Under the pieces are notes generated by a model. It saw nothing but the letters and a program-made list of their open reading frames with translations. It did not search any database and was not told where the DNA came from. A stretch of 64,000 nucleotides of DNA from Candidatus Saganbacteria bacterium (GTDB lineage Bacteria; Margulisbacteria; WOR-1; XYC2-FULL-46-14; WPAF01): the NCBI GenBank assembly GCA_009772965.1, contig WPAF01000001.1, positions 78,639 through 142,638 of the forward strand. The letters run 5' to 3'. The position numbers and the translations under genes are program-made. Positions 3,573 to 35,725 of this stretch are shown piece by piece (position 1 is the stretch's first letter; each line of letters opens with the position of its first letter).

Positions 3573-5579
3573 TTATCCATTTTGCTCTGTTTCGTTTTCA
3601 ATTTTAGGCTCACTGTTTGATTCCAAACATTCATTCAAATAAGCTCCCTTTTTTGTCCCATACCAGACAACTTCCCGGCACCATTCTTCCCATGTTTTCC
3701 GCTTGTTTTTGTCCCTATCGATCTGGTATTGGCATTTTCTCTTTTCCAAATGAATTTTTTCTCCATTTAGAGTTTTACGGTAAATATCATAAATGTTGTA
3801 ATCAAGGGTTATTTCTTCTTTCTCATTCGTAAAAGGCAATTTAATAAGCGCATTATTCAGCCGAATAGAATCGCCCAATAATCCATCCGGCAATTCTATT
3901 CGCTTGTTTTTTATGTATTCTTCGATGGCATCACTAGCTTCGTCATAGAACTGTTGCAAACCATTCTCATAACAAAGTTTTATAAAAACGTATTCATCAA
4001 CCGGCCACCAAATATTAAGCCACTCTTCGGAAGCAATATATTCATTGCTGCCCTGCTGGATTTCTTTCGCTTTTTTGATAAATGTTTCGTTTATTTCTGC
4101 TATCCTTTTTCGCTCACTGGTGTTTTTCATAAATATTTCAATCAACTCGCGATAGCTCACTTCTGCAACTTGATTCATTATAACAAAAACAAGCTGCATC
4201 AATTTATTAAAATGCAACAAAGATGTCACCCAGCAAAACACTCTGGCTTTTACCCATTCTTTTGCAGGCATCGTTTTCGTCCCCACAACAAGATATTGTT
4301 TTTCAGATATTTCCGAATGAACACTAATGCTTGTATGGTGCGGCGTATTAATAGATTCCACAATTTGCATGCCGTATTTAGATTGGTAGTCGGGATGGGA
4401 CATCTCCGTGTTATTTAAAATCGATAAATTAATAAACTGAATTCGATTATGCTGTCCGCTGCCAATCACACTTGCCACGCCTTCCGTAAAACTTTCATAG
4501 CTCTCGTTAGGCAACGCCAAAATCATGTCGCTGAAAGTAGATATATTATTTTTTGCAAACATTTTTTGCAGGTCTGCGTACGTCTTATTGTTTATGTTGC
4601 TACGATTGATGCTCTCTAATGTTTCTTGGTTCACAGATTGAAGCGCTAGGTTCACTCCTTTCTGTAGTCCGGAATCATTCAATATTTTTTGTATTTCAAA
4701 AATGCTTGCAGTAGAATTCTTGGTGTTTTGCACCGAAAAAGCCTCGGGATAACCATACTTTTCCTTGTTTTCCGCAACTTTTTTCGCTATTGCCATATCC
4801 CTTTTTAAAATTCCAAAATTAGCATCACAGCAGAAAACAAATTGAATTTTATTTTTGCTTATCCAATCAATTTCACAAAAAACCCGGTCTTGCGGAAATT
4901 GGAGAACTTTATTCCTTGTTTTATCTCCCCAGTAACAGTAGGAACAAGAAAAAGGGCATCCACGATTTGTTTCAATCAAAGCCGACCATTTTACATTGGG
5001 ATTAGCAGCCAATAAAGGATCAAAAGTCCCTTCCAAGTAGGGAGACGGGATCTCATTCAAGTCCTCTATTCTCTCCGAGGCACCATTAAAACAAAAAAGA
5101 CCTTCTTTGCCAAGAAAACCTATGGAAGGCACATTGTCCCATGAACGCTGCCTCGCACTCTCCAGAATTTTTAAAAATATTATTTCGCCTTCACCGTAAC
5201 AACCAATATCAATATATCTATGCTTCTTTAGAAATGTTTCCATTTCTTCCTTATTTTCAGGCACCTCGGGTCCCCCAAAAACAATTCTGCACTTCGGCGC
5301 ATTTAACTTGACTCTCTTTGCAATCTCAAGACTATTTTGATAATTCCAATTATAAACGCTAAAAAATATTATATCTGCAGATAAAAGATCTTTTACTTCC
5401 CTATCTATATCATCCTTTTTATAAATTGGCAGGAGAAAACAATAGTTTTCAGGGTTTTTCAGTTTCTTTTGGGCGTAGGATTGCAAAAGACCTATCGAAT
5501 ACGGCAGATAATACTGATCTCCGAATTTGTCGCCAATCTGAACCAATCCTACTGTTGTTTTACTGCTATTTTTATTCAT
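3573..5579 (-). CDS. Cobalamin(B12)-binding-domain radical SAM enzyme (class B)
   Basis: CxxxCxxC in NRGCPFSCSYCYW, preceded by an N-terminal Rossmann-like B12-binding region. 668 aa with a long C-terminal extension. Confidence 0.85.
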   Translation of the reverse strand: MNKNSSKTTVGLVQIGDKFGDQYYLPYSIGLLQSYAQKKLKNPENYCFLLPIYKKDDIDREVKDLLSADIIFFSVYNWNYQNSLEIAKRVKLNAPKCRIVFGGPEVPENKEEMETFLKKHRYIDIGCYGEGEIIFLKILESARQRSWDNVPSIGFLGKEGLFCFNGASERIEDLNEIPSPYLEGTFDPLLAANPNVKWSALIETNRGCPFSCSYCYWGDKTRNKVLQFPQDRVFCEIDWISKNKIQFVFCCDANFGILKRDMAIAKKVAENKEKYGYPEAFSVQNTKNSTASIFEIQKILNDSGLQKGVNLALQSVNQETLESINRSNINNKTYADLQKMFAKNNISTFSDMILALPNESYESFTEGVASVIGSGQHNRIQFINLSILNNTEMSHPDYQSKYGMQIVESINTPHHTSISVHSEISEKQYLVVGTKTMPAKEWVKARVFCWVTSLLHFNKLMQLVFVIMNQVAEVSYRELIEIFMKNTSERKRIAEINETFIKKAKEIQQGSNEYIASEEWLNIWWPVDEYVFIKLCYENGLQQFYDEASDAIEEYIKNKRIELPDGLLGDSIRLNNALIKLPFTNEKEEITLDYNIYDIYRKTLNGEKIHLEKRKCQYQIDRDKNKRKTWEEWCREVVWYGTKKGAYLNECLESNSEPKIENETEQNG

Positions 5580-6571
5580 ATTTTTGCAACAAAATAACTC
5601 TTTTTATTCTTATATTCCTTGGGATTTTGAATAAACCATTCCCAAGTTTTTTTTAACCCTTCCTTAAGAGTTGTTTTTGGGCGATAATTTATGCTTTTCT
5701 CAGCTAAAGATATATCCATTATTCTTTTATTTGCTCCTGTTGGCATACTTGCATCAAAAATATACTTAAAATCAATAATTGAAGCCAACGTTTCCATTAG
5801 CTCTTTAATTGAAATAGGTTTACCGCTTCCGAGGTTTACAAAGCCGGAAGGAGTTCCATAGTATAATGCTTGTATAATACCTTCAGCCACATCACGGCTA
5901 TAAACAAAATCTCTAATTGCACTCCCATTACCCCAGACAACCAGCGGCTGTTCCTTGTGCAGTATGCGATAAAGCAAAGAAGGGATAACCAAGGAATTCG
6001 CGGGATCAAAATTGTCTCCCGGCCCATAGACGTTGGATGGCCTGACGATCGCAAAATTATCCAGACCGTGCTCCTCTCCATATGCAAAGATCTGCGCCTC
6101 CGCCATTCTTTTTGCCCAGCCCGCAAAATCCATTGGATTGCTGTCGATCCGATATTCAGATTCCTTAAATATTTCCGCAGGAGCATAAGCGCCAACCGAA
6201 CTCGTGTATACTATTTTTTTGACTTTATTGAGCCGACAGGCCTCCAGGACATTGCTGTTCATCATCAGCATCGGCACAAAATGGCTGGCGGCTTTTTCCT
6301 TAGCAGCTTTAACCGACGCCCCGATCCCGGCAATATGGAAAACAAAGTCCATGTCTTCGGTCAGCTTTTTACAAAGGTCGAAGGAAGTCAGATCTCCGAT
6401 TATATATTCAGCTTTTTTATTCAGCCTGAGGCTATCCAAGGAAACAATCTTCAGGTGGGCCCCGGTGTCTGCCAAAATATCCGCGACTTGCCTACCGATC
6501 AATCCGGTTCCACCAGTGACTAAAATATCTTTTTTATTAAAACTCTCTAAAATATCTTTACTTATCACCAT
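5576..6571 (-). CDS. NAD-dependent epimerase/dehydratase-like extended SDR (GDP-fucose-synthase-like)
   Basis: [14 protein letters not shown] Rossmann motif. The track ORF extends to 6622, but the ATG at 6571 (MVISKD...) sits 1 nt after the upstream stop and removes a 50-nt overlap. Expected YxxxK region reads DFAGWAKRMAE. Confidence 0.75.
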   Translation of the reverse strand: MVISKDILESFNKKDILVTGGTGLIGRQVADILADTGAHLKIVSLDSLRLNKKAEYIIGDLTSFDLCKKLTEDMDFVFHIAGIGASVKAAKEKAASHFVPMLMMNSNVLEACRLNKVKKIVYTSSVGAYAPAEIFKESEYRIDSNPMDFAGWAKRMAEAQIFAYGEEHGLDNFAIVRPSNVYGPGDNFDPANSLVIPSLLYRILHKEQPLVVWGNGSAIRDFVYSRDVAEGIIQALYYGTPSGFVNLGSGKPISIKELMETLASIIDFKYIFDASMPTGANKRIMDISLAEKSINYRPKTTLKEGLKKTWEWFIQNPKEYKNKKSYFVAKI

Positions 6572-6572
6572 G

Positions 6573-7631
6573 TCAAAACGGCCCCTTGAACTCTTTATAT
6601 AGCGTCTTCTTATATTCTTCATCCGGCAATGATTGATTATGTTTTTCCTTGCCAGAACAAAGCTGATAAATATTATCTACAATATCTCCCATATCAGCAT
6701 AAAAATGTTTTTCTAACGCCTTTGTCGTCGGACAGGGAGATTTGGCCATCGAAATTTCCTTTAATGGGACTTTTAAACTGTCAGGTGCATTAACAGCAAT
6801 TATTCTCGCCACTTCCGCGCAAACCCCAAAAGAAGCCCAGCTTGTATCAGCCACAATCACTTTTCCAGTTTTTTTAACACTTTCCAATATCATGTCGACA
6901 TCGGGATGCGTCAGGCAATTAATATCTATGATCTCGACTTCTATCCCGGCTTTTTCTTTTACGTATTTTGCCGCCCGCTGTGCTTCTTGCACCATAACGG
7001 AAACAGCAACGATCGTTACGTCGCTTCCTTTTCTGATAAGATATGAGGTAAAAGGATTTTGGTCATCTCTCCGCTCTTTTACTTCAAAACTATAATCGTA
7101 TTGCAATCGATGTTCGAAGGATATCACCGGAGATTTATATTCATTTACAGCATATCGGTAACAATCCATAATGCTCTGCGCCGCCGACGGCATAATGACT
7201 GTCAATCCGGGAACATGAGAAAAAAGAGATTGCAGGCTTTGTGAATGCTGCGCCCCTTGCCCCCAACTTCGCCCGATCACTCCGCGAACCAGCATCGGCA
7301 CGGTAAAACAGCCACCGTACATATATTTGTACTTGGCGGCAGAATTAACCAGCTGGTTCATCGCTAACAGCATGAAATCATTCCTGATATGCGTGTGGAT
7401 GGGATAATAACCGCTCAGAGCCAGCCCAATGCCTAAACCAGTCATGGCATCCTCGGAGATCGGCGTATCGAAGACTCGCTCTTTGCCAAATTCTTTTTCC
7501 AGCCCAAGCGTCGTACCGAATATCCCCGTATGGTCAGTTACGCCAAGTCCGTAAAGCACGGTTTTAGGATTATCTCTTAGTGCCTCACGCATTGCTTTTG
7601 CCAGCGCTTGCCTGTAAGTCATTGTTGCCAT
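6573..7631 (-). CDS. ThDP-dependent E1 beta-like subunit, orphan pair 2
   Basis: FGKERVFDTPISEDAMTGLGIG and PIHTHIRNDFMLLAMNQL. 1-nt overlap with the alpha gene. Confidence 0.85.
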   Translation of the reverse strand: MATMTYRQALAKAMREALRDNPKTVLYGLGVTDHTGIFGTTLGLEKEFGKERVFDTPISEDAMTGLGIGLALSGYYPIHTHIRNDFMLLAMNQLVNSAAKYKYMYGGCFTVPMLVRGVIGRSWGQGAQHSQSLQSLFSHVPGLTVIMPSAAQSIMDCYRYAVNEYKSPVISFEHRLQYDYSFEVKERRDDQNPFTSYLIRKGSDVTIVAVSVMVQEAQRAAKYVKEKAGIEVEIIDINCLTHPDVDMILESVKKTGKVIVADTSWASFGVCAEVARIIAVNAPDSLKVPLKEISMAKSPCPTTKALEKHFYADMGDIVDNIYQLCSGKEKHNQSLPDEEYKKTLYKEFKGPF

Positions 7632-8551
7632 TAATAAACGTCCTTCAGAAGCTCTTCCCGCGGCGGAAAACCACTTTTTTCCGCAAAATTTACCGCTTCT
7701 GCTATTTCATTTTCGATCCTTCCCCTGTATTTTTCAATCAGCGCCCTGTTCCCGACCAGTGGATCCCGGCGCATCCATTCTTCCAGTTCTTTTCTCCCTC
7801 TGTAACCTTTATCATAATCCTCAGCAACACCAACATGTCCTTTATACCTATAAGTCATAATCTCAAGAAGGAAGGGTCGTTTAGTGTTTACAATTCCTTC
7901 CCTTATCTTTATTGTTTTTTCAAAAATATTTTCCATATCAAAGCCATCTTCTGCTAAAAAATAATCAATGCCATACGATCCAGCTAATGCTCCAAGTGTG
8001 TATGACTGCCTGATGCAGAGCGGCGCATGGATCGCCAAGCCATTATTCTCAATTACATAAAGTATTGGCAGATTCTTCAAAGAAGAAAAATTCAGGCATT
8101 CGTGAAAAGCCCCCTCTTCAGTCGCGCCATCGCCCGCCAAGGCAACTGCAATCTTAGATTCTTTCTTTAATTTTGCCGCGTAGGCAACGCCCATTGCGTG
8201 AGAAAAAATCGAACCAACTATCGCGGATGATCCCATCGAACCGTTAGCAGGAGAACAAAGATGCATTGATCCGGCTTTGCCCTTTGCCATGCCGGAATGT
8301 TTACCATACAATTCGGCAAACATTGCTTTCAAGTCTCCTCCCTTGGCAAGATAAGGCGCATGGCTTCGGTAGGTTGCAAAGACCATGTCATCCTTTTTCA
8401 GCGCTGCACAGATGGCAACAACATGATGCTCCTGGCCAATGGAGAGATGAACAGGGCTCTGGATCTTATCAGAAGGGTAGATTTCCACGATCTTTTCTTC
8501 AATCATTCTTATCCTGAGAGCCTGATAAAATAATTTTTCGAATGTATCCAT
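7631..8551 (-). CDS. ThDP-dependent E1 alpha-like subunit, orphan pair 2
   Basis: GDGATEEGAFHECLNFSSLKNLPILYVIENNG ThDP motif; GSMHL. Confidence 0.85.
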   Translation of the reverse strand: MDTFEKLFYQALRIRMIEEKIVEIYPSDKIQSPVHLSIGQEHHVVAICAALKKDDMVFATYRSHAPYLAKGGDLKAMFAELYGKHSGMAKGKAGSMHLCSPANGSMGSSAIVGSIFSHAMGVAYAAKLKKESKIAVALAGDGATEEGAFHECLNFSSLKNLPILYVIENNGLAIHAPLCIRQSYTLGALAGSYGIDYFLAEDGFDMENIFEKTIKIREGIVNTKRPFLLEIMTYRYKGHVGVAEDYDKGYRGRKELEEWMRRDPLVGNRALIEKYRGRIENEIAEAVNFAEKSGFPPREELLKDVY

Positions 8552-9541
8552 TTAAACTGTTTCCCTGGCGACAGCTTCACGGCAATGGTCTAAGAGATAT
8601 TGAACGCTTTCTTCAAAAGAATATTTCGGCTGCCAGCCAGTCTCTTTTTTGAATTTACTCACGTCCGGAACCTGCAGCGTCACATCCGCAGGGCGCAAAA
8701 GTTTCGGATCGACTTCACTTTTGATCGGCACCCGCGCAAGTTTTTTTAATAACTCCATGAATTCACCTACTTTTATCGTAGTCGGACCGCCGATATTGTA
8801 AACTTCTCCATAACGGCATTTGAGCAACGCTACCCAGTATGATTCCATAGCATCGCGAACATCAATAATGGTCCGTATCGAATCCAGGTTTCCGTGAAGC
8901 AGTATTTTTTGCTGCCCAGCTTCGATCCTGGCGACTTGCATCGTAAAAGAGGTCGCAAAAAGATCTTGCCTCCTTGGATTCAGGTATGCAAACATCCTGG
9001 TTCGTATGATCTTCATCTTATAACTGAGGTAATAGGTATAACCCAGCAGATCCTGCGCTACTTTTGAGACGGCGTAAGGGCTGGAGGGATTGATCGGGCA
9101 ATCTTCTTTGATCGGAACATTCTTCGGGTCAACCTGGCCGTAAACCTCCGAAGTGCTGCAAAGCTGGACAACAGGGTCGAGCTCTGCGATCCTGATCCCT
9201 TCCAGCAGATTTGCTGTCCCCATAATATTGTTGTTCAAGACCGAAAGCGGAGTGATAAAAGAGGCGCGCACATTGGCATGGGAGGCAAGATGGAATATCC
9301 CGTCAGGTTTTACCTGTTTCAAGGTGGAAAGAACAGAACTCAGATCGTTCAGGTCGCATTCATGCACCGTCACATTGTCCCTGATATTACGCAGATTTTC
9401 GTTGGCTGCGGTGCTGTGCCATCTCGATATCCCGTGCACCTCAATTTCGGGGTGATGATTAACTACGTATTCAGCCAGATAGCTTCCGCCTGAACCGGAC
9501 ATCCCCGTAATGATCACTTTTCTTATTTTTCTTTCGCTCAT
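8552..9541 (-). CDS. Extended SDR of the GDP-mannose 4,6-dehydratase / GDP-4-keto-6-deoxymannose reductase type
   Basis: ITGMSGSGGSYLAEYV, STSEVYG, SPYAVSK (intact S/Y/K triad), and C-terminal LRPADV...GWQPKYSFEE. Confidence 0.7.
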   Translation of the reverse strand: MSERKIRKVIITGMSGSGGSYLAEYVVNHHPEIEVHGISRWHSTAANENLRNIRDNVTVHECDLNDLSSVLSTLKQVKPDGIFHLASHANVRASFITPLSVLNNNIMGTANLLEGIRIAELDPVVQLCSTSEVYGQVDPKNVPIKEDCPINPSSPYAVSKVAQDLLGYTYYLSYKMKIIRTRMFAYLNPRRQDLFATSFTMQVARIEAGQQKILLHGNLDSIRTIIDVRDAMESYWVALLKCRYGEVYNIGGPTTIKVGEFMELLKKLARVPIKSEVDPKLLRPADVTLQVPDVSKFKKETGWQPKYSFEESVQYLLDHCREAVARETV

Positions 9542-9544
9542 AGG

Positions 9545-10477
9545 TTAAATATTGGCGTACTGGTTCCGTTTTATGATCCGGAACGCCTTAATCAGTTCCG
9601 CGATCCCTTCCTGCAGGGAAACCTGCGGCTTAAATCCCGTTCTTTCTATCTTTTCATTGCTTACGATATAATCCCTCTTATCCGGATCTTCACCTACTTC
9701 GGCTTCCACAAAATAAAAATCTGGGATCAATTTTTTTATCTCCTGGCATAATTCCAGCTTACTAAGATTTGCGTCGCTAAGCCCAACATTATACGGCTCA
9801 TTTTTCATTTTCTCAAAATTATCCAGCGAATGGATGAAAGCTCGAGCAATATCGCGCACGTGGATATAATTACGGTTAAAATGCGCTTCGAACAGCACAA
9901 TGAATCGGTCATAGAAGGCGCGGTAGGTAAAATCATTCACCAAGAGGTCAAGGCGCATCCTCGGGCTGACACCAAATGCGGTGGCAAGCCTTAATGTGAT
10001 CGCGTTGCCGGCCGCCAACAGCAAATTCTCAGCTTCTACTTTGATCTTTCCGTAAATTGAGATCGGATTCAAGGGAGTGGCTTCAGTGCAATGCTTACCT
10101 TTTTGCCCGATCCCATATCCACTGTTAGTGGTCGGATATATAATGACCTGATCTTTGCAACGCAATGACAGAATCATTTTGATGGCATCGACGATTACCG
10201 TGTGAGCCGCGATCGGATCCTTATTGCAGAGCGGGGCACCGGTAAGGCAGGCCAGCGGAAAAATGGCATCCATGTCCTTCATATGCTTCCTGACTAGCTC
10301 TTTATCCCGAGTATCACCTCTGATGATCTCAAGTTTTTTATCGTAGCAACATTCCAGCAGCGAGGTTTGGCCATACATAAAATTGTCAAGGACTGCTACT
10401 GCGTGCCCCTGTTTCAACAATTCAGGCACCATGACTGAGCCGAGATAACCGGCGCCGCCTGTAACCAATATTTTCAT
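9545..10477 (-). CDS. NAD-dependent epimerase/dehydratase family protein
   Basis: MKILVTGGAGYLGS; intact SIYGKIKVEAE (YxxxK). Confidence 0.75.
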   Translation of the reverse strand: MKILVTGGAGYLGSVMVPELLKQGHAVAVLDNFMYGQTSLLECCYDKKLEIIRGDTRDKELVRKHMKDMDAIFPLACLTGAPLCNKDPIAAHTVIVDAIKMILSLRCKDQVIIYPTTNSGYGIGQKGKHCTEATPLNPISIYGKIKVEAENLLLAAGNAITLRLATAFGVSPRMRLDLLVNDFTYRAFYDRFIVLFEAHFNRNYIHVRDIARAFIHSLDNFEKMKNEPYNVGLSDANLSKLELCQEIKKLIPDFYFVEAEVGEDPDKRDYIVSNEKIERTGFKPQVSLQEGIAELIKAFRIIKRNQYANI

Positions 10478-10707: not shown

Positions 10708-10716
10708 AGTTGAAAA

Positions 10717-10744: not shown

Positions 10745-10758
10745 GATGCAATATATCT

Positions 10759-13597: not shown

Positions 13598-13598
13598 A

Positions 13599-14300: not shown

Positions 14301-14301
14301 A

Positions 14302-15537: not shown

Positions 15538-15548
15538 TTCGACTCTCC

Positions 15549-15776: not shown

Positions 15777-15796
15777 ACGCCTTCTCCTTCCTGATA

Positions 15797-18464: not shown

Positions 18465-18489
18465 TTATTATCATACCCCTTGATTTATC

Positions 18490-22654: not shown

Positions 22655-22659
22655 TATTT

Positions 22660-25107: not shown

Positions 25108-25120
25108 TTATTACTCCTAC

Positions 25121-28725: not shown

Positions 28726-28746
28726 TTTATCTGCTCCTCATAATTA

Positions 28747-29757
28747 TTAGTTGCATGTTGTTTTGTCGAATTTTTCTAAGATTTGAGTAGCAACTCTGCT
28801 GCTTCCTATTCCATCTACATATTTTTTCCCAATCTCACTTGCTTCTTTTCTTATTTGCTGACTCCTCAATTCATCAAAACAATTTTTTACATTTTCAAGA
28901 AAGCGGGAGTCGTTATACCACCCTGCATATTTCATAAAACCAACTTCAGACCATCCCTTAAGATTCATCTCTTGATTATCAGCCACACAAATGCCAATTG
29001 CTGGCGTGCCAGTAACTGCCAGCTCAAAAGTGGTTTGTCCGCCCGCAGAAATTGCAATGTCACAGCTAAGCATTAAATCCCGCATTGCTTCGGCGCCAGG
29101 CTTAAAAATAAATCTTACCTTTTTGTTATTTTTATATTCATCCATATAATCAGTATTTATAAAACCCCAACCAATAACTACATTTAAGGTACAATCAAAA
29201 TTATTTAAAAGTAGTTCCATTATACGTGGGGTCGAGTTATTTGCATCATCCCCCCCAAAAGTTATAAGGACATTATTTATGTCTTTTTTTATAATTCGAT
29301 CATATGGCTTACAAAATTCTCTTCTTAAAAACGCATATTCAGAACCCAAAAGATAGATTATGTCCTCTTTTTCGGGATAACTAAACTTTCTAGCACAAAC
29401 CGATCCGTTGAGCACAATGCCAGACGGATAGTTAATTCGGTTAAAATCATCCAAACATACTAAAAGCTTAACCATTTTAGAAAGCCCTATATATTCCTCT
29501 GCTTTCATCTTATATGAATCTATTACTAACACATCTATCCCTTTTACCAGTTCGCTGGTACGCTCATAAGCATTTTGCCAATCAAAAGTAAAATGTTTAA
29601 TTACATTCTTAAACTGCCCCAAGACACTTTCATCAGAATTAACAATAAAAAATGGTTTTGCCCCTCTTTTTTCAAGCTCATAATACAAAGAAAGACAACG
29701 CATAATATGCCCAAAACCAATACCCTTTCCACCCTCAGTGCGGATTGCAATCTTCAT
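28747..29757 (-). CDS. pseG: PseG-like UDP-sugar hydrolase (GT-B fold)
   Basis: MKIAIRTEGGKGIGFGHIMRCLSL matches the PseG N-terminal signature (xIGxGHxxR). 4-nt overlap with the cytidylyltransferase gene. Confidence 0.65.
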   Translation of the reverse strand: MKIAIRTEGGKGIGFGHIMRCLSLYYELEKRGAKPFFIVNSDESVLGQFKNVIKHFTFDWQNAYERTSELVKGIDVLVIDSYKMKAEEYIGLSKMVKLLVCLDDFNRINYPSGIVLNGSVCARKFSYPEKEDIIYLLGSEYAFLRREFCKPYDRIIKKDINNVLITFGGDDANNSTPRIMELLLNNFDCTLNVVIGWGFINTDYMDEYKNNKKVRFIFKPGAEAMRDLMLSCDIAISAGGQTTFELAVTGTPAIGICVADNQEMNLKGWSEVGFMKYAGWYNDSRFLENVKNCFDELRSQQIRKEASEIGKKYVDGIGSSRVATQILEKFDKTTCN

Positions 29758-30482
29758 TTTTGTGCCTCCGGAATCAGTTTTCTATTTAAAACATATTCTA
29801 ATAAATAGAAATCTTCTTCATGATCAACTTCTAATATATAAGGGAAATCATGGATAAACGGCATTATTCTTCCCATGTAAAAATGCCCGTCTATTTGAGG
29901 TATGGATTCATCCATCAAGACTTTTGTTTTAATCGCCTGCACTGATCCATCATGCATATACGTCTTTGGCATTTCCTGCGTTCTAAAACGCAATACCATG
30001 GGTTTTTCTCTGAATTCTAAGAGATCTCCTCGAATAATTTTCATTGATTCCGGATGTTGATCTGCTTCGAAAACAGTAGACACGGTATCTGTTTTTTCAA
30101 AATTATCGATCAATTTTTTAATGACCCGATCAACCAATCCCTTTTCCCTAAAAGGAACATTGGGCTGCAACCAAACCACGATATCGGGAAGCCAACCTTC
30201 TGATCTTTCAATTTCTTTAACCGCATGCCTTAGAGCAAAATAAATGGGGGCTTCATCAGTGGCATACTCAATCGGGCGCATAATACACTTAACCCCTTCT
30301 TTTAGAGCTATCACAGCAATTTTTTCATCATCGGTAGAGACTACGCTTATAGCAACACTTTGTGCTTCTTGCGCATCCCTTATTGTATAAGCAATCAATG
30401 GGATGCCATTCAAAAGTCGAATATTCTTATTTTTTACGCGTTTACTTCCGCCCCGTGCAGGAATAACACATAAAGTTTTCAT
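29754..30482 (-). CDS. pseF: CMP-nonulosonic acid synthetase (acylneuraminate cytidylyltransferase family)
   Basis: CVIPARGGSKRVKNKNIRLLNGIPLIAYTI. Confidence 0.8.
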   Translation of the reverse strand: MKTLCVIPARGGSKRVKNKNIRLLNGIPLIAYTIRDAQEAQSVAISVVSTDDEKIAVIALKEGVKCIMRPIEYATDEAPIYFALRHAVKEIERSEGWLPDIVVWLQPNVPFREKGLVDRVIKKLIDNFEKTDTVSTVFEADQHPESMKIIRGDLLEFREKPMVLRFRTQEMPKTYMHDGSVQAIKTKVLMDESIPQIDGHFYMGRIMPFIHDFPYILEVDHEEDFYLLEYVLNRKLIPEAQK

Positions 30483-31852
30483 GCAATTTTCTCCATTTTT
30501 GTATGTCTTTTTGTATTCCAGGCCTTTAATTCTTTTATCATATCTTCTCTAATTTCAAACAACTCCTCATTTGACCAATGGGTAAAATTGACCAATATTT
30601 GCTCTCCCTGCTCCCACAATTTACAAATATACTCAAATTCATTTTGGATCAGCCCTTTTTTTAACGCATAATCATATAATTCCGTCCCTGGGTAGGCTGT
30701 TGCAAAGAATATGGCTTCAGGGATAAAATCAATATCTTTACAAAACCCAACTGTCTCTCGGATTGTTTCTTTGGTTTCCCCTGGTAATCCAAGGACAAAT
30801 GTCCCCCCCACCTCGCCAAACACTTCCCGCGTAAGTTTAATGGCATTCTTGGTTTGCTCAACCGTAACATTTTTTTTCATCAGATCAAGCATCTTCTGGC
30901 TGCCGGACTCAATCCCATAACCAACCATATTACAACCCACTTCTTTCAAGTTTTGCAAAACTTCTTTATCTACCAAATTAACCCTGCCCGCAAAACAAAA
31001 TTGAAACCCCGGCTTTTCCTTTCTCATTAAGCCGCAAAAATCATCAATAAACCTTCGGTTGATCATTGATTCATCATCTGCCCAAATAAAATAAGTAACG
31101 CCATAATGCTCATTTAAAAAGCGCATCTCTTTTAAAACATATTCCGGCGAATGATGCCGATACCCTGCTCCCATAAAATCGTGATAGCAAAAAATACACT
31201 TATACGGGCATCCCCGAGTAACATTAATATTTGTTGACTTAGGCACGCCCGATTCAACCTGCTTCCCGTCTGCCCACTTATTCTTATTAATATGTCCAAC
31301 CGGATTGTTAACATAGATATCCATGGGGAATAGGTCATAAGCGGGCAAGGGGATAGCATCTAAATCGGCAATTGGTTTTCTCGCTGGTTTTTTTATAATT
31401 TTGCCGTCTTCACCTTTATAGTAGATCCCGGCCACGTTACCTAAATTGTCATTTTTGCTTATTGCATTTACAATTTCAACAATTGTAATTTCTCCCTCAC
31501 CGATACAAGCAATATCAGCTTGAGTGTTAGCTAAAATAAGTTCCGGAATAGAAGTGGAAACTCCTCCTCCTAAAATAATCTTCGCAGCGGGGCGATATTT
31601 TTTTATGGCTGCCACTAGCCATGTAATATATTTGGCGGTGGTCACAATTCCACCCGTACCTACAATATCATATTGCAGGCTCTGCAATTTATCCTCAACC
31701 TGTTCTTTTGTGTAACGAAAAGCATTGATATCTAATACTCCAACTTCATGTCCCGCTTCCCGCAAAACACTTGCCAGATAAGCCAACCCCAGGGGAACGC
31801 AATTTGGCGCAGCCCATTCCCTAATGGGTGGATTGATCAACAAAACCTTCAT
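30479..31852 (-). CDS. Cobalamin(B12)-binding-domain radical SAM enzyme (class B)
   Basis: KVLLINPP...LGLAYLASVLREAGHEVGVLD B12-binding region and CPYKCIFC cluster motif. Confidence 0.85.
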   Translation of the reverse strand: MKVLLINPPIREWAAPNCVPLGLAYLASVLREAGHEVGVLDINAFRYTKEQVEDKLQSLQYDIVGTGGIVTTAKYITWLVAAIKKYRPAAKIILGGGVSTSIPELILANTQADIACIGEGEITIVEIVNAISKNDNLGNVAGIYYKGEDGKIIKKPARKPIADLDAIPLPAYDLFPMDIYVNNPVGHINKNKWADGKQVESGVPKSTNINVTRGCPYKCIFCYHDFMGAGYRHHSPEYVLKEMRFLNEHYGVTYFIWADDESMINRRFIDDFCGLMRKEKPGFQFCFAGRVNLVDKEVLQNLKEVGCNMVGYGIESGSQKMLDLMKKNVTVEQTKNAIKLTREVFGEVGGTFVLGLPGETKETIRETVGFCKDIDFIPEAIFFATAYPGTELYDYALKKGLIQNEFEYICKLWEQGEQILVNFTHWSNEELFEIREDMIKELKAWNTKRHTKMEKIA

Positions 31853-34131
31853 TTTGACCTCTTTAAAACATTAATATTCCGACATTTAAACTTGCGAATC
31901 TCACCATTATTTGAATCAACAACAATAAGCTGGGAGAAACCCATTTGTTTGACTTTCACGCAAAGAACGGCAGGATTTTTATCAGCAGAAGATTGCGGCC
32001 TTTCTCTTGGTTGATAAAATGGATAATACCCCTTTAAGAAATATATTTCATGTGCTTTATCTCCAAATGGAGGCAACCCGTCAATCAGCGCAATTTCCGT
32101 TAGAGCCGGCATTATAAACGGAACATGTCCTCTTTTTTTCGAAGAATACCAACACGACTCAACATTTGAAGCAAATAACAATGTTTTATTCTTTTCATAA
32201 TGCGGTAATTCGCCTAAAACTGAAACAGATTTCATCAATTTATATCTTGCGTTCTTTTTTAATCCGTTGCTAATAGAATCTTTGTTGTATAACGGACGGA
32301 TCAATGCCAATGTTTTTCCTATGTTTTTTTCTCTTCTGAACTGTTTTTCAATATCAGAAAAAGAAATTGGCTGATCACGCTTGTTTATAATCGCGATTCG
32401 ATAATCTATATTCTGCTCCAAAGTGTGATGGAACTTTGCTTTGGCATAAAACACCATGGCAACGACAAAAAATGAAAATATTAAAAACAAAAAAACATCA
32501 ATCATTTTCCTGGAAATACAAATATTCCCTTTAAAGAATTTGATGCTATTTTTATCCGGTAAAAACCTCGGCAAATATGCCAGCAAAAACAACATTGCAA
32601 TTATTCCTTGATAGTCCGCAAAATAGCCTTCTCCTCCAGAATTGATAAACAAAAATACTCCGGGCAAAAAGCCAAACAAAGCTAGAATAACTACCGTTTC
32701 AATGTCAACAAACTCATTTCTTCGCACCGCTTCATAAAACATACCTAGTGTTCTGACTTTTGTTTTATATATTCGCAAACCAATAAAGGTAATGGCAAGA
32801 AAATAATATAATAAAAAATAAACAGGAAGCAGGATGTGCGGAATGATACGAACAATATTACGCATCAAACTAGAATTGATTATTGTTAAAGGCGTATCTC
32901 CAGCCCCGCTATGAACTGAATGAGAGCCAAGGTTAAGAACTAAATATGGGTGAAATGCCACAATATATGAGGCGATTGATAAAATACACATCAAAATAAA
33001 ACTTATTGCAAATATTGGCCTCCTATATAATCTCATACGTAAAAAGAAATACCATCCCAACACCATTATTAAATAACCGATAGAAGCCTTAGCTAAAACG
33101 ATAAAACCCACAATAATTGGGACAATAACCAATAAAAAAAGACTATTGCCCGGAGTAAATCCTTCTTCTTTATTTGTGGACCAAAATCGGGCAAAAAGAG
33201 ATAATAGCAAAAGTGAAATAATGATCGAGAAAGCGTACGATTCACTAATATACCGATCATATCTAATGGCATAGTCAAATAGATTATAAAAACCAAAATT
33301 CAAAACACCGATCTGCATTATTATCAAAAGGATCCAAAATTTTATATCTGTTCCAATATTGAATTTCATATCCGGCAGCACAAGGCGCCTTATTTCAAAA
33401 ACAAACGACAGCATTACATTTATAAAAAGCGGGATAATAATAACCGGAAATCCCAGCTGATAAAATGTTATTGTTTTAATCTTTAACAAGCTGGAAAGAT
33501 GCGCAAAAATCAAATGACTTCCAAAATGATATCCAGTAAAGGGCACACCATTTAATCCGGTAGAAACTATCCCATATGTTTTAAGCATGCCCGCAATAGA
33601 ACTATGATACAGCGTATCTACATGTCCAAATCCGTAAAACACTCCTTCATAAAAGAGCGGATTAAGATACCCAGAACCCCAAACCAATCCCATTAACCAC
33701 AAAGAATATAAAATTATAAGCAATCCTGCTGGAATAAGAACAAGCGGTTTTACTTGCCTTAAACAATCAAATGCGCACCAAGCAAATAATGTCACCCCTA
33801 TTACGACAAATAATAAACTGATATTCATTCCAGTAAACGCTACCAAAATCCCTGCGCTAATGACAAAGAATAAAGCTAAAAGCAAAATCATTGCATCGCA
33901 AACCAACCAGGATTCTTTTTCTTTAATATTAAATCGCTGTTGAATATGCCTAATTCCAGATGGGAGCAAAATGATAAACCAACTGGTAGCCAACACAGTG
34001 AACACAGAAAATAACGATGTATCCCCTGAATTATCAAAACCTATTCTAAAGAAACAAAAAAAGGCCGCTAATACTAAAGCCACAACAGCAGAAAAAAAGG
34101 CGCCTATATTTTTTACCTGTGAATATGCCAT
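31849..34131 (-). CDS. Polytopic membrane protein with a C-terminal soluble domain (candidate GT-C-type glycosyltransferase or polymerase)
   Basis: 760 aa. The first ~560 aa are dominated by hydrophobic helices and the last ~200 aa are hydrophilic. No family motif was recognised with certainty. Confidence 0.45.
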   Translation of the reverse strand: MAYSQVKNIGAFFSAVVALVLAAFFCFFRIGFDNSGDTSLFSVFTVLATSWFIILLPSGIRHIQQRFNIKEKESWLVCDAMILLLALFFVISAGILVAFTGMNISLLFVVIGVTLFAWCAFDCLRQVKPLVLIPAGLLIILYSLWLMGLVWGSGYLNPLFYEGVFYGFGHVDTLYHSSIAGMLKTYGIVSTGLNGVPFTGYHFGSHLIFAHLSSLLKIKTITFYQLGFPVIIIPLFINVMLSFVFEIRRLVLPDMKFNIGTDIKFWILLIIMQIGVLNFGFYNLFDYAIRYDRYISESYAFSIIISLLLLSLFARFWSTNKEEGFTPGNSLFLLVIVPIIVGFIVLAKASIGYLIMVLGWYFFLRMRLYRRPIFAISFILMCILSIASYIVAFHPYLVLNLGSHSVHSGAGDTPLTIINSSLMRNIVRIIPHILLPVYFLLYYFLAITFIGLRIYKTKVRTLGMFYEAVRRNEFVDIETVVILALFGFLPGVFLFINSGGEGYFADYQGIIAMLFLLAYLPRFLPDKNSIKFFKGNICISRKMIDVFLFLIFSFFVVAMVFYAKAKFHHTLEQNIDYRIAIINKRDQPISFSDIEKQFRREKNIGKTLALIRPLYNKDSISNGLKKNARYKLMKSVSVLGELPHYEKNKTLLFASNVESCWYSSKKRGHVPFIMPALTEIALIDGLPPFGDKAHEIYFLKGYYPFYQPRERPQSSADKNPAVLCVKVKQMGFSQLIVVDSNNGEIRKFKCRNINVLKRSK

Positions 34132-34147
34132 TTACATTTCCTTTCCT

Positions 34148-35725
34148 TTATCCGTTATTAACCAAAGTGTTTTTTGCCATGGCTTCCATGCATTTTTCCA
34201 ACTCTATTATACGATCATATCTATTTTTATTTTGAATCCTTATCGTCTGGCCAGCAATTCCTTTCTTGCCAACCACATCTTGCGAACTCTTTGACAAGAA
34301 ATCATAAAAATAATGTTTGAGCGTCCTCACGATCAATTCAACGTACTCCCTCAAAGTATGCTTAAAATAAAATATTTTTCTCCCGTATGTTGTGATCGCA
34401 AAAAAGTAATGAGTAAAAAAGAATAGTTTATTCGATTTCCAATAGATCAAGTGGTTAATGATAAGATTTCTCAAGGCCGGAAATTTCACCGCCACGATCG
34501 CCAGTTGGCAAAGATTGTACTGCGCATTCTTCTCCTTTTCCGGGAAGCAATCGAGCGGGCTGGCATTCCTCATGCCGTAATTGATATCCTCTTTATCCGC
34601 ATAATAAATACCGGCCTGTTTACAATAATCGCCGAGATCCGTTCCCGGATAAGGCATGAAAATAGAAAAATTCGGCATGTCAGGCTGCACCTTGATGGCA
34701 AAATCCACGGAAGCGATGTCCTGATCAAGAGTTGAGAACGGCAGCGCAAGCATTGTGTTCGCATAAACATTTATCTTGTGCTTTTTAAATATTTTGAAAG
34801 CTTCTTCCAGTTTTTCTTTGCTGATCCTGCGGCGCAACATGCGGTTTCGCAACATATCATCCCCTGCTTCGATAGACATACAAATAGAAAAACAGCCAGC
34901 TTTTTTCAAGTAATATGCCATTTCATCGCTTATTGTTTCCGAACGCAATAAACAATAAAAGGGTATTTTAATTTCTTCTGCCCATCGCTTAGCAAATTCC
35001 TTTAACCAATCATCAACTTTATGAACAAAAACATCATCCTGCATTCTTACAAAAGCAACCCTATAATTTTTAACGAGTTCTTTGGTTTCCCTTATTATGG
35101 AATCAACACTTCGCCGGCGGACAATCTTGCCCTTTCCTTTATACAAAGCGTTGAATCTGTTATTGAAACAATAAGGGCAAGGATACGGGCATCCCCTGCT
35201 TGCCCAGATACCTTTGATGCCGAATTTCGCCATTTCAGGGTACTGATAAACGAGATCCCTGTCCATAAATGGAAGAGCATCAAGGTCTTCGATAAAATCC
35301 ATCAACTCCAGCTTTGAATCGCTGGAAACCATGATGTTCGGTATGCCTTCCAAGCTCTTGCCCTTTTCCAGATTATTTACCACTTCAAGGATCGCTTTAT
35401 CTCCCTCCCCGACACAAATCGCATCAATATTGGGATCATCGATACAACTTCTATCAAGGGTAGCGTGCGGCCCGCCAAGCAGAGTAAAAACCTTTTTCCT
35501 CATCCTCAAATTGTCATTAAACTTCTTCATATCAGCCATATCAACCGACATCATGCTGTACGCGATCATATCAGGCTTCCATGAATCTATTTTCGCCTCG
35601 ACGTTTTCCTGCTGGAGGACGCCCAACGTCGTCTGATGCCCTTTTTGTTTGACGATTGCGGAAAGCATCATCGGCCCGAACGGCTCATTCACGCCCAGAT
35701 CATTGATAATAAACATTATTTTCAT
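34148..35725 (-). CDS. Cobalamin(B12)-binding-domain radical SAM enzyme (class B)
   Basis: MKIMFIINDLG...LSAIVKQKGH B12-binding region and CPYPCPYC cluster motif. Confidence 0.85.
   Translation of the reverse strand: MKIMFIINDLGVNEPFGPMMLSAIVKQKGHQTTLGVLQQENVEAKIDSWKPDMIAYSMMSVDMADMKKFNDNLRMRKKVFTLLGGPHATLDRSCIDDPNIDAICVGEGDKAILEVVNNLEKGKSLEGIPNIMVSSDSKLELMDFIEDLDALPFMDRDLVYQYPEMAKFGIKGIWASRGCPYPCPYCFNNRFNALYKGKGKIVRRRSVDSIIRETKELVKNYRVAFVRMQDDVFVHKVDDWLKEFAKRWAEEIKIPFYCLLRSETISDEMAYYLKKAGCFSICMSIEAGDDMLRNRMLRRRISKEKLEEAFKIFKKHKINVYANTMLALPFSTLDQDIASVDFAIKVQPDMPNFSIFMPYPGTDLGDYCKQAGIYYADKEDINYGMRNASPLDCFPEKEKNAQYNLCQLAIVAVKFPALRNLIINHLIYWKSNKLFFFTHYFFAITTYGRKIFYFKHTLREYVELIVRTLKHYFYDFLSKSSQDVVGKKGIAGQTIRIQNKNRYDRIIELEKCMEAMAKNTLVNNG

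Follow-up and report, generated by a model that had tools for sequence, protein, structure and literature searches.

Four B12-domain radical SAM genes in one polysaccharide island

In the window (the whole 64,000-nt stretch analysed here), four open reading frames (ORFs) encode radical SAM proteins with a B12-binding domain. All are on the minus strand and at the positions originally predicted, and are here termed rSAM1 to rSAM4. These genes, the membrane-protein gene that separates two of them, the genes that head the island and its sole plus-strand gene are as follows:

3573-5579, minus strand, rSAM1: 668 aa, TokK/CysS/KedN5-type B12-domain radical SAM protein
10855-11820, plus strand, fifth radical SAM gene: SPASM/twitch type without a B12 domain (PF04055 and PF13186)
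15797-17212, minus strand, rSAM2: 471 aa, B12-domain radical SAM protein of an uncharacterised family
30479-31852, minus strand, rSAM3: 457 aa, B12-domain radical SAM protein of pseudaminic-acid-type operons
31849-34131, minus strand, 760-aa membrane protein between rSAM4 and rSAM3
34148-35725, minus strand, rSAM4: 525 aa, B12-domain radical SAM protein, with an ArnC-like GT2 and a multi-pass membrane protein
41949-44822, minus strand, head of the island: Wzz-like (41949) and Wza-like polysaccharide export (42633) genes (Pfam)

The original prediction had read each of the four ORFs as a B12-binding domain joined to a radical SAM motif, and the HMM classification that it proposed bore this out. 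For rSAM1, rSAM2, rSAM3 and rSAM4, respectively, Pfam scores were 36.6, 60.8, 71.7 and 52.3 bits for the N-terminal B12-binding domain (PF02310; gathering cut-off 32.1) and 46.5, 78.1, 96.1 and 64.2 bits for Radical_SAM (PF04055; gathering cut-off 29.5). The translations contain the predicted CxxxCxxC motifs, CPFSCSYC (residue 208 of rSAM1), CPRQCTYC (226, rSAM2), CPYKCIFC (215, rSAM3) and CPYPCPYC (179, rSAM4).

Each gene had been assigned to a different sub-module, and this placement was right and is reinforced by synteny that is kept in other phyla. The rSAM1 gene lies between orphan E1 pairs (1544/2581 on one side and 6573/7631 on the other), and rSAM2 adjoins an ACP, a PP-binding carrier protein of 75 aa (15549-15776). 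The 760-aa membrane protein has rSAM3 on one side, followed by a PseF-like cytidylyltransferase gene, and on the other rSAM4, followed by a class-I methyltransferase gene. Neighbouring ORFs are closely spaced or overlap by 4-8 bp, which suggests that the radical SAM genes and their neighbours are co-translated. The Wzz-like/Wza-like pair also heads a Margulisbacteria locus (L005; 45% and 35% identity). SPASM radical SAM genes, like the fifth gene of this island, also occur near an rSAM2 orthologue in locus L090 and an rSAM4 orthologue in locus L087.

rSAM1 is a predicted TokK/CysS-like enzyme in a deoxysugar module

The genes of module A, which surrounds rSAM1 (697-10477, minus strand; Pfam and NCBIfam), are:

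697, minus strand, SDR
1544, minus strand, E1beta
2581, minus strand, E1alpha
5576, minus strand, epimerase/reductase
6573, minus strand, E1beta
7631, minus strand, E1alpha
8552, minus strand, NDP-hexose 4,6-dehydratase-like
9545, minus strand, epimerase

TokK and ThnK, which act on the carbapenem C6 alkyl chain, and CysS, which acts on the alkoxy groups of cystobactamid, are cobalamin-dependent radical SAM C-methyltransferases, and the characterised TokK/ThnK/CysS/KedN5-type enzymes are iterative. Among PDB sequences, rSAM1 matched TokK (E 2.5e-80 over residues 22-480) and CysS (E 7.5e-60). It resembles this family in its CxxxCxxC-x-W motif, its C-terminal domain, a similar size in the range of about 650-680 aa, and its equivalents of TokK W76 and W215, to which W78 and W217 align. 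In TokK, W76 occupies the lower axial position, where radical methylases typically have a hydrophobic residue, and W215 is the Trp that follows the cluster motif (PMC12931638). Against the KedN5/TokK/CysS family model NF033712, rSAM1 scored 264.9 bits over residues 67-622 (cut-off 700), and is a homologue of this family rather than a member by the curated rule. We predict that rSAM1 is a TokK/CysS-like C-methyltransferase, possibly iterative.

The genomic context of rSAM1 differs from that of its characterised relatives, in that its neighbours are nucleotide-sugar and E1 alpha/beta genes and not those of an NRPS or beta-lactam cluster. Orthologues of rSAM1 have these partners beside them in metagenome loci L092-L111 as well, and across 22 metagenome loci with rSAM1 orthologues the partners reached 71% (epimerase 5576), 70% (dehydratase 8552), 68% (epimerase 9545) and 43-53% (E1 alpha/beta) identity. 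Orphan E1 alpha/beta pairs put two-carbon branches onto deoxysugars, and the pairs AviB1/AviB2 and Plm8/Plm9, like those of module A, come without E2 or E3 (PMC4802897). In both settings the pairs sit near an NDP-hexose 4,6-dehydratase and reductases, a likeness by description only; the Avi and Plm systems belong to actinomycete antibiotic clusters that, unlike module A, have no B12-domain radical SAM gene. The module A gene set is consistent with a branched deoxysugar. We propose that the 4,6-dehydratase, the epimerase/reductases and the branch-attaching E1 alpha/beta enzymes would make a 6-deoxyhexose, which rSAM1 may methylate or on which it may extend the alkyl branch.

rSAM2 is linked to a class-III aminotransferase and a carrier protein

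Module B surrounds rSAM2 (11852-24054, minus strand; Pfam and NCBIfam), and its genes encode:

minus strand, 581-aa LIC12162-like protein
minus strand, PIG-L deacetylase
minus strand, C-methyltransferase
15549-15776, minus strand, carrier protein
17205, minus strand, class-III aminotransferase
18490, minus strand, LIC12133-type methyltransferase
minus strand, PdxA-like, IMPase-like, AMP-ligase, glyoxalase and GNAT proteins

This gene set is also present on a 123,984-bp JGI contig, and the order methyltransferase, class-III aminotransferase, rSAM2 is conserved there and in L090. Orthologues of rSAM2 share 55-67% identity. More distant homologues are fused to NAD-epimerase/RmlD domains (49% identity) and, in one case, to an NTP-transferase domain (43% identity), and one fusion sits in a nucleotide-sugar cluster. 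We propose that rSAM2 works with the aminotransferase, which is GSA-aminomutase-like, the methyltransferases and the carrier protein, and that it would act either on a nucleotide-sugar or on a side chain that is tethered.

The class B radical SAM C-methyltransferases GenK, GenD1, Fms7 and Fom3 act on aminoglycoside sugars or on a CMP-linked phosphonate. In gentamicin biosynthesis, methylation by GenK is followed by oxidation and then by a class-III aminotransferase, a pairing that the rSAM2 module resembles by description only. The likeness to the four enzymes as a group, i.e. B12-dependent radical methylation of unactivated sugar or CMP-linked carbons, is likewise one of description, and their products are secondary metabolites as opposed to the cell-surface glycan considered here.

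It is possible, if doubtful, that rSAM2, and perhaps also rSAM1, acts not on the sugar itself but on a side chain, acyl or aminoacyl, that the carrier protein bears and that is only later joined to the sugar. The carrier-protein gene begins 20 bp downstream of rSAM2, module B includes an AMP-ligase, and the syntenic JGI contig retains a 79-aa ORF of carrier-protein size; moreover, according to the titles of entries 9n1b and 9n1c, crystals of the rSAM1 homologue CysS contained a pantetheinylated substrate. However, the fusions of rSAM2 homologues to NAD-epimerase/RmlD and NTP-transferase domains indicate nucleotide-sugar substrates, and in L090 the methyltransferase-aminotransferase-rSAM2 set has no obvious adjacent carrier protein.

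rSAM3 lies in pseudaminic-acid-type operons

The two halves of module C lie on either side of rSAM3, rSAM4 and module D. The distal half (24055-30482, minus strand; Pfam and NCBIfam) and the proximal half (39449-41588, minus strand; NCBIfam) contain:

24055, minus strand, NulO synthase
25121, minus strand, E1beta
26103, minus strand, lipoate ligase
26720, minus strand, E1alpha
27628, minus strand, lipoyl-domain/PglD-type N-acyltransferase fusion
28747, minus strand, PseG
29754, minus strand, PseF-like cytidylyltransferase
39449-40609, minus strand, PseC
40614-41588, minus strand, PseB

In the window, PseB (544 bits; cut-off 408), PseC (523; 423.5) and PseG (167; 153.6) exceeded their NCBIfam cut-offs, as did the N-acyltransferase fusion for the NeuD/PglB/VioB family (169; 160.8), while the synthase and the cytidylyltransferase scored below the PseI, NeuB and PseF cut-offs. 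The canonical pseudaminic acid pathway (PseB, PseC, PseH, PseG, PseI and PseF) thus has PseB, PseC and PseG equivalogs here. The window differs from it in that the N-acyltransferase is the lipoyl-domain/PglD-type fusion, accompanied by a dedicated lipoate ligase and E1 alpha/beta pair. A further difference is the radical SAM gene: the canonical pathway has none with a B12 domain, whereas rSAM3 operons have one between PseC and PseF.

The rSAM3 family is large: clusters at 53-75% identity number more than 120, and a scan of 185,579 species genomes returned 407 relatives. Among 30 loci with an rSAM3 orthologue (at least 50% identity), 28 had Pse/NeuB genes. PseC was directly upstream in 14 of 27 loci and PseF directly downstream in 16 of 29, and PseB, PseC, PseF, PseG and NeuB were all present in half of those with enough flank (10/20). 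The co-location of rSAM3 with PseB, PseC, PseG, the NulO synthase and the CMP-transferase therefore holds across genomes, and the order PseB-PseC-[rSAM]-PseF-PseG-PseI is conserved. These loci also encode a GNAT able to serve as PseH, on its own or as part of a PseG fusion, so the pathway is complete and the radical SAM gene comes on top of it. We propose that rSAM3 would add one extra modification within otherwise complete pseudaminic acid biosynthesis, and predict that its family represents a widespread, undescribed extra step of this pathway.

rSAM4 clusters with Arn-like genes and a large membrane protein

The remainder of module D (35732-39495, minus strand; Pfam) consists of:

35732, minus strand, class-I methyltransferase
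36401, minus strand, DegT aminotransferase
37518, minus strand, SDR dehydratase/epimerase
38506, minus strand, ArnC-like GT2

The top NCBIfam match of the GT2 was ArnC (197 bits; cut-off 529), and the DegT protein scored 233 against ArnB (cut-off 631). Orthologues of the module D proteins (52-72% identity) adjoin rSAM4 orthologues in L087, L088 and L114, and the set of GT2, SDR, DegT, methyltransferase and rSAM4, with a PMT_2 or other large membrane protein, recurs in Elusimicrobiota and Omnitrophota. In such loci PMT_2 or DUF7024 membrane proteins follow rSAM4 orthologues or lie near them, and in the window this place is held by the 760-aa protein. Its hydropathy profile has ~12 hydrophobic segments in residues 1-570 and then a soluble C-terminus of ~190 aa. 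It gave no Pfam or NCBIfam match even at E<=5, with no GT-C homology detected, and its AF2 model (pLDDT 42.8) was unusable.

Module D resembles the Arn (L-Ara4N) pathway of lipid A modification (ArnA, ArnB, ArnC and ArnT) in that rSAM4 clusters with an ArnC-like GT2, an SDR and a DegT/ArnB-like aminotransferase, and rSAM4 orthologue loci also have a multi-pass PMT_2 membrane protein. It differs in that all of its scores fall below the Arn NCBIfam cut-offs, in its additional class-I methyltransferase and radical SAM enzyme, and in the lack of detectable GT-C homology in the 760-aa protein. We propose that an aminosugar is the substrate of rSAM4 in an Arn-like route, where this sugar would be loaded onto polyprenyl phosphate and moved across the membrane.

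Predicted chemistry of the four enzymes

Cobalamin-dependent C-methylation is the likeliest chemistry of the four proteins and is well supported only for rSAM1, where the prediction, like that of a need for cobalamin, is good given its TokK-like sequence and conserved key residues. By NCBIfam, rSAM2, rSAM3 and rSAM4 match non-methylating families (BchE and HpnJ) as strongly as methylases. The best PDB sequence match of rSAM3 was MgmA/QCMT (9CCB; E 6e-23). The rSAM4 model has a Rossmann domain and a barrel, a class I fold matching MgmA, TsrM, CysS, TokK and OxsB, and is equally close to MgmA, a methylase, and to AprD4, a cobalamin-free diol dehydratase. MgmA/QCMT, a joint-best fold match of rSAM4 with class I B12-radical SAM architecture, is the B12-dependent glutamine C-methyltransferase of methyl-coenzyme M reductase, and its substrate is a protein.

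None of rSAM1 to rSAM4 has a DxHxxG motif. Base-off binding of cobalamin by class B enzymes does not require this motif (PMC12931638), and for this reason cobalamin binding has no diagnostic sequence motif. Cobalamin uptake genes, synthesis genes and riboswitches were absent from the 64,000-nt window.

An unlikely reading, which would apply above all to rSAM4 and perhaps to rSAM2, is that one or more of the proteins are radical dehydratases or oxidants like AprD4 rather than cobalamin-dependent methylases. They would then yield a keto-sugar that is aminated by the adjacent DegT or class-III aminotransferase or reduced by an SDR, i.e. a deoxy or amino change with no C-methyl group. AprD4, the radical SAM 1,2-diol dehydratase of apramycin biosynthesis, was the top or joint-top PDB match of rSAM2 and rSAM4 by structure and sequence, its substrate is an aminosugar and it has a Rossmann-like N-domain. 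AprD4 has no bound cobalamin, and ArsL is another such look-alike (PMC12931638). However, sequence matches to AprD4 are confined to the radical SAM core at residues 144-420, whereas alignments with B12 families start at residue 14-20 and take in the N-terminal domain, and PF02310 scored 52-72 bits, well over its cut-off. Scores against the AprD4 family (NF033070) were 87.7, 80.5 and 76.5 bits for rSAM2, rSAM3 and rSAM4, far short of the cut-off of 500 and with only the core aligned, and rSAM1 is clearly TokK-type.

Strong divergence among the four genes

Any two of rSAM1 to rSAM4 are just 20-28% identical. For each of them, a separate orthologue family at 45-75% identity occurs in other phyla, which are uncultured and for the most part anaerobic. 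The pairwise comparison that had been suggested as a check for recent duplication thus returned no recent duplicates. The description of the genes as paralogs stands at the superfamily level; an expansion within the island does not, as there are four separate orthologue families instead.

No protein reached the cut-off for any curated NCBIfam family, whether BchE, HpnJ, HpnR, AprD4, MgmA or KedN5. The best scores were 184.5 for BchE (TIGR02026; rSAM2; cut-off 481), 179 for HpnJ (TIGR03471; rSAM3; 578) and 100 for HpnR (TIGR04367; 650), and for MgmA/QCMT (TIGR04014; 360) rSAM3, rSAM2, rSAM4 and rSAM1 scored 130, 81.5, 63 and 25 bits. Neither of the two outcomes named beforehand as contradicting the original prediction was observed, since the N-terminal domains score as B12-binding and the defined-family cut-offs were unreached.

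It is very improbable that the proteins belong to non-glycan families (BchE cyclase, hopanoid HpnJ/HpnR, MCR glutamine methylase or RiPP methylases) and have sugar neighbours by chance. Many homologues are labelled anaerobic Mg-protoporphyrin cyclase or YgiQ in source databases, and BchE and HpnJ are the top NCBIfam matches of rSAM2 and rSAM3, but the scores lie far under the curated cut-offs (BchE 184 against 481, HpnJ 179 against 578, MgmA 130 against 360) and sugar-gene synteny is kept across phyla in all four families, which together refute such membership. Recent duplication inside the island, giving redundant or closely related activities, has a negligible chance of being correct: the genes have the same domain architecture and occupy a single strand within 32 kb, but the low pairwise identity and the separate orthologue families, with different conserved neighbours in other phyla, refute it, and lengths (457-668 aa) and C-terminal domains are unlike.

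The four genes share their domain architecture, are strongly diverged from one another, represent distinct orthologue families and have conserved neighbours. With moderate confidence, we interpret them as anciently diverged class B radical SAM genes, each encoding the signature enzyme of one of four independently conserved sugar-precursor modules that have been joined in a single Wza/Wzz-type surface-polysaccharide island. Each enzyme would perform SAM-derived radical chemistry, most probably methylcobalamin-mediated C-methylation, and gene neighbourhood alone suggests nucleotide-linked, lipid-linked or carrier-linked precursors as substrates. If so, the glycan carries several radical-installed modifications.

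The count of four had been called unusually high, which holds only in relative terms. Among 112 comparison loci (each at most 22 kb and anchored on one B12-domain radical SAM gene), 17 had two such genes, eight had three and one (L011) had four. The count is not unique, as locus L115, by its gene table, also has four inside 9.5 kb. Proteins identical to rSAM2 and rSAM4 are present in a Candidatus Saganbacteria MAG deposit.

Four divergent radical SAM families in one polysaccharide island

The minus strand of the window is a nearly uninterrupted gene run, which Pfam and NCBIfam annotation identifies as a surface polysaccharide island of four modules (A to D). Wza-like (42633) and Wzz-like (41949) export genes form its head, and overlaps and short intergenic gaps suggest that its genes are co-transcribed. 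Housekeeping genes (Mur ligase, RecG, AlaRS, DnaB and PheRS) lie to the right. A truncated NAD-dependent epimerase/dehydratase ORF (1-696, minus strand) is cut by the left edge of the window, and therefore the island extends beyond it. The same DNA is also present on ENA and Logan metagenome contigs. The four radical SAM genes with a B12-binding domain are listed here with their cysteine motifs and PF02310 scores.

3573-5579, minus strand: rSAM1 (module A), CPFSCSYC at residue 208, 36.6 bits
15797-17212, minus strand: rSAM2 (module B), CPRQCTYC at residue 226, 60.8 bits
30479-31852, minus strand: rSAM3 (module C), CPYKCIFC at residue 215, 71.7 bits
34148-35725, minus strand: rSAM4 (module D), CPYPCPYC at residue 179, 52.3 bits

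Translation confirmed the ORFs and motifs, and all four proteins exceeded the Pfam gathering cut-offs for both an N-terminal B12-binding domain (PF02310, 32.1 bits) and Radical_SAM (PF04055, 46.5-96.1 bits against 29.5 bits). Pfam and NCBIfam annotation also agreed with the neighbourhoods first described for the four genes. The DxHxxG cobalamin motif is absent from all four proteins, which is uninformative since class B enzymes bind cobalamin base-off (PMC12931638).

The original prediction, which called the four genes paralogs spread through one glycan island, is partly supported. Its domain architecture and its separate sub-modules held; the four are not recent paralogs, and their number is high but not singular. 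Pairwise identities were 20-28% by all-against-all BLASTP (closest pair rSAM2/rSAM3: 28%, E 1.6e-45), ruling out recent duplication, and each protein has its own orthologues in other phyla. These were 53-75% identical for rSAM3 (>120 clusters), 60-75% for rSAM4 and 55-67% for rSAM2. Orthologues of rSAM1 were 39-61% identical (22 metagenome loci), and rSAM1 matched 1,670 clusters at E<=1e-30 in a library clustered at 50% identity. The four mutually divergent proteins belong to four separate orthologue families, with distinct conserved sugar-pathway neighbourhoods.

None of the four reached a curated NCBIfam cut-off. The top matches were the KedN5 family for rSAM1 (265 bits against a cut-off of 700), BchE for rSAM2 (184 against 481), HpnJ (179 against 578) and BchE (178 against 481) for rSAM3, and the MJ_1487 family for rSAM4 (96 against 251). 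These cut-offs rule out BchE/HpnJ-type membership, and the labels 'Mg-protoporphyrin cyclase' and 'YgiQ' carried by homologues in source databases are likewise unsupported.

rSAM3 is an addition to a complete pseudaminic-acid-type pathway

Class B radical SAM enzymes are known chiefly from antibiotics, cofactors, lipids and peptides, and to our knowledge almost nothing ties them to cell-surface glycans. The main interest of the island is not its gene count but rSAM3 and, less so, rSAM4, as widespread families of B12-domain radical SAM enzymes that belong to glycan pathways: Pse-type nonulosonic acid synthesis for rSAM3 and an Arn-like lipid-linked aminosugar route for rSAM4. Our comparisons show two or more of the four families (rSAM3 and rSAM4 among them) to be conserved glycan-pathway parts across many uncultured phyla.

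Module C: pseudaminic-acid-type pathway with PseB, PseC, PseG, NulO synthase, cytidylyltransferase, rSAM3 and an N-acyltransferase fusion set

PseB (544 against 408 bits), PseC (523 against 423.5) and PseG (167 against 153.6) passed their NCBIfam equivalog cut-offs, and the NulO synthase and cytidylyltransferase of the window scored below those for PseI, NeuB and PseF. The rSAM3 gene lies directly upstream of the cytidylyltransferase gene, with a 4-bp overlap.

Three contig look-ups placed rSAM3 orthologues in NulO clusters of Omnitrophica, Margulisbacteria and Thermodesulfovibrionales. When the family alignment was scanned against one genome per species, 407 relatives were found in 185,579 species genomes. 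The 80 loci returned of these 407 were all MAGs, from Omnitrophota, Planctomycetota including Brocadiaceae, Nitrospirota, Desulfobacterota, Elusimicrobiota, Margulisiibacteriota, CPR groups and several archaeal lineages. ORFs of the 80 loci were compared with the window proteins, and synteny was counted on the 30 loci with an orthologue at least 50% identical. Pse/NeuB genes were present in 28 of the 30. Where the flank sufficed, PseC was directly upstream of the rSAM3 orthologue in 14 of 27 loci and PseB, PseC, PseF, PseG and NeuB were all present in 10 of 20; a PseF-like cytidylyltransferase followed directly downstream in 16 of 29. The recurring order, on one strand, was PseB-PseC-rSAM-PseF-PseG-PseI. 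In three of the loci examined by Pfam (L012, L021 and L048) there is also a GNAT as possible PseH, either joined to PseG or encoded by a small gene of its own. Since the Pse set is complete and a candidate PseH accompanies it, the rSAM3 gene is an addition to the pathway and replaces no step.

Tentatively, and with the odds against it, the rSAM3 family may represent an unrecognised, widespread Pse branch. In it a cobalamin-dependent radical SAM enzyme, whose gene lies between those for PseC and PseF, would place a C-methyl or other radical modification on the sugar skeleton or on an N-acyl group. If so, the product would be a new nonulosonic acid class, whose backbone may have ten carbons, displayed by many uncultured anaerobes, both bacterial and archaeal, at the cell surface (Omnitrophota, Planctomycetota including Brocadiaceae, Nitrospirota, Desulfobacterota, Elusimicrobiota, Margulisiibacteriota/Saganbacteria, CPR and several archaeal lineages). 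On the same tentative reading, rSAM4 would mark a variant of Arn-type transfer of lipid-linked aminosugars that includes a radical SAM enzyme. In the literature searched, we found no paper joining radical SAM enzymes with nonulosonic acid biosynthesis, and such enzymes go unmentioned in the SugarBase preprint.

In several PseBC-rSAM3-PseFGI operons there is, in addition, a set of three genes, for a ~380-aa protein without a Pfam match, a HisH-like glutamine amidotransferase and a HisF-like protein. Pfam confirmed this trio in L019 (6679-10001), which also has a small methyltransferase (~215 aa), and in L021 (5283-7766); ORF sizes suggest its presence in L008, L027 and L037. As it resembles WbuX/Y/Z, which form acetamidino groups, Pse derivatives of the acetamidino type are probably also produced by these organisms.

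Module C of the window further encodes a 365-aa protein (27628-28725, minus strand) in which an N-terminal lipoyl domain (PF00364) is fused to a hexapeptide sugar N-acyltransferase of the NeuD/PglB/VioB type (TIGR03570, 169 bits, cut-off 160.8). The putative lipoyl-lysine lies in 'IIETTKVATE', and the linker looks like a peripheral-subunit-binding domain. Flanked by genes for E1alpha (26720-27631), a lipoate ligase (26103-26723) and E1beta (25121-26128), the fusion resembles a PDH-type E2 in which a sugar N-acyltransferase has taken the place of the acyltransferase core. It may fill the PseH step, with the acyl group coming directly from a 2-oxoacid.

rSAM4 accompanies an Arn-like gene set

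Module D: inserted between PseC and rSAM3, with an ArnC-like GT2, SDR, DegT aminotransferase, class-I methyltransferase, rSAM4 and a 760-aa membrane protein

ArnC was the top NCBIfam match of the GT2. Module D resembles the Arn-type route, in which a UDP-sugar becomes a keto-sugar, receives an amino group and is attached to polyprenyl phosphate before a GT-C enzyme transfers it, but adds a methyltransferase and a radical SAM enzyme. Related orders occur in other loci (identities to the window proteins in brackets): GT2 (52%)-SDR (72%)-DegT (62%)-rSAM4 orthologue (71%)-LPG_synthase_TM-another B12-rSAM-PMT_2 in L087 (Elusimicrobiota, same contig as L025); GT2 (53%)-rSAM4 (67%)-PMT_2-SDR (64%)-DegT in L088 and GT2-rSAM4-SDR-DegT-MT-PMT_2 in L114 (both Omnitrophota); and GT2-rSAM4 (62%)-770-aa DUF7024 membrane protein in L089.

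The place of the GT-C enzyme in the window is taken by the 760-aa protein (31849-34131, minus strand), with ~12 hydrophobic segments followed by a ~190-aa soluble C-terminal tail. It had no Pfam or NCBIfam match even at E<=5 and no phmmer similarity to the PMT_2 and DUF7024 proteins that follow rSAM4 orthologues; its only homologues among the comparison loci were copies of the same organism's contig. A single-sequence AlphaFold model was unusable (pLDDT 42.8). In L004 (Omnitrophica), a 775-aa protein is unrelated to it, and a 693-aa radical SAM protein resembles rSAM1 (27% identity) and is not orthologous to rSAM4. Upstream of rSAM4, the 215-aa class-I methyltransferase (35732-36379, minus strand) weakly matched 'corrinoid protein-associated methyltransferase CpaM' as its top NCBIfam family (44.7 bits against a cut-off of 180).

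rSAM1 is a TokK homologue in a putative deoxysugar module

Module A, 697-10477: SDR, two E1 alpha/beta pairs, NDP-hexose 4,6-dehydratase-like, two epimerase/reductases and rSAM1

In a PDB search, rSAM1 proved clearly homologous to TokK (E 2.5e-80, residues 22-480) and to CysS (E 7.5e-60). According to a 2026 review (PMC12931638), TokK W76 is the hydrophobic residue that radical methylating B12-rSAM enzymes typically have at the lower axial position, and W215 is positioned between cobalamin and cluster; the two align with W78 and W217 of rSAM1. Cobalamin-dependent C-methylation by rSAM1 is therefore strongly suggested.

Orthologues of rSAM1 are accompanied by the epimerase/reductase 5576 (<=71% identity), the 4,6-dehydratase-like 8552 (<=70%), the epimerase 9545 (<=68%), E1 alpha/beta pairs (43-53%) and an SDR. 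Orphan E1 alpha/beta pairs of deoxysugar clusters add a two-carbon branch derived from pyruvate, as is known for Plm8/Plm9, AviB1/AviB2 and an analogous enzyme for yersiniose (PMC4802897). The two E1 pairs of module A resemble such pairs from antibiotic clusters. Most plausibly, rSAM1 would act as a TokK/CysS-like methylase that methylates or extends an alkyl branch of a 6-deoxyhexose.

Three E1 alpha/beta pairs occur in the island without E2 or E3 genes (1544-3552, 6573-8551, and 25121-26128 with 26720-27631); at only 30-43% mutual identity they are not recent duplicates. G+C at 6001-10000, a stretch with the dehydratase 8552, the epimerase 9545 and the E1 pair 6573-8551, is 0.44-0.46 against 0.34-0.41 elsewhere in the island; this part of module A may thus be of mosaic origin.

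rSAM2 may act on nucleotide sugars or on a tethered side chain

Module B, 11852-24054: LIC12162-like protein, PIG-L deacetylase, C-methyltransferase, PP-binding carrier protein, rSAM2, GSA-aminomutase-like class-III aminotransferase, LIC12133-type methyltransferase, PdxA-like, IMPase-like, AMP-ligase, glyoxalase and GNAT

Module B is found almost gene for gene on a 123,984-bp JGI contig, in the order NeuB-GNAT-glyoxalase-AMP-ligase-IMPase-PdxA-79-aa ORF-C-MT-PIG-L-MT-AT3-rSAM2 orthologue, followed by another B12-rSAM gene (567 aa). The PdxA-like dehydrogenase and inositol-monophosphatase-like genes (19304-21123, minus strand) lie inside the island and are both kept on that contig. L090 retains MT (44%)-AT3 (70%)-rSAM2 (60%), flanked by two more genes of the B12-rSAM type, one for a SPASM radical SAM enzyme and one for a 578-aa protein.

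Homologues of rSAM2 are fused to NAD-epimerase/RmlD domains (49% identity) or, in one case, to an NTP-transferase domain (43%), and one such fusion is located in a nucleotide-sugar cluster, which hints that the family acts on nucleotide sugars. Alternatively, the adjacent carrier protein and AMP-ligase would fit a tethered side chain as substrate.

The only plus-strand gene of the island (10855-11820) encodes a fifth radical SAM protein, of the SPASM/twitch type and with no B12 domain, and adjoins the gene for the 581-aa LIC12162-like protein. SPASM radical SAM genes also occur near rSAM2 or rSAM4 orthologues in L090, where the 578-aa protein follows, and in L087.

Predicted chemistry

The original prediction envisaged several C-methylations or other radical modifications and a cobalamin requirement. 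From neighbourhoods and domain fusions we infer substrate classes for all four enzymes; cobalamin-dependent C-methylation by rSAM2, rSAM3 and rSAM4 is only plausible. Their PDB relatives were all weak: the AprD4 core, MgmA/QCMT (9CCB) and OxsB. The main rival to C-methylation is an AprD4-like, cobalamin-independent dehydration or oxidation feeding the adjacent aminotransferases. No cobalamin uptake or synthesis genes were found in the window, its housekeeping part included, and an Rfam scan of the window gave no cobalamin riboswitch (a tRNA scan was likewise empty). Under cobalamin-dependent chemistry, surface-glycan synthesis in these organisms would be corrinoid-dependent, and many probably scavenge corrinoids. 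Candidate substrates are CMP-Pse, the UDP-sugars formed along the Pse pathway and aminosugars linked to polyprenyl phosphate, and unusual masses are predicted in CMP-sugar pools.

Four genes mark the top of a continuum

Four B12-rSAM-like genes in one cluster had been considered unusually many. Among 112 comparison loci (<=22 kb, each anchored on one such gene), 81 contained one B12-rSAM-like ORF, 17 two, eight three and one (L011) four, with none counted in five. The four of the window are thus at the top of the range but not singular: the gene table of an Aureabacteria locus (L115) has four within 9.5 kb, and the Elusimicrobiota contig behind L025 and L087 has three or more, along with a SPASM enzyme. 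Such a count therefore lies at the upper end of a continuum that these lineages typically show.
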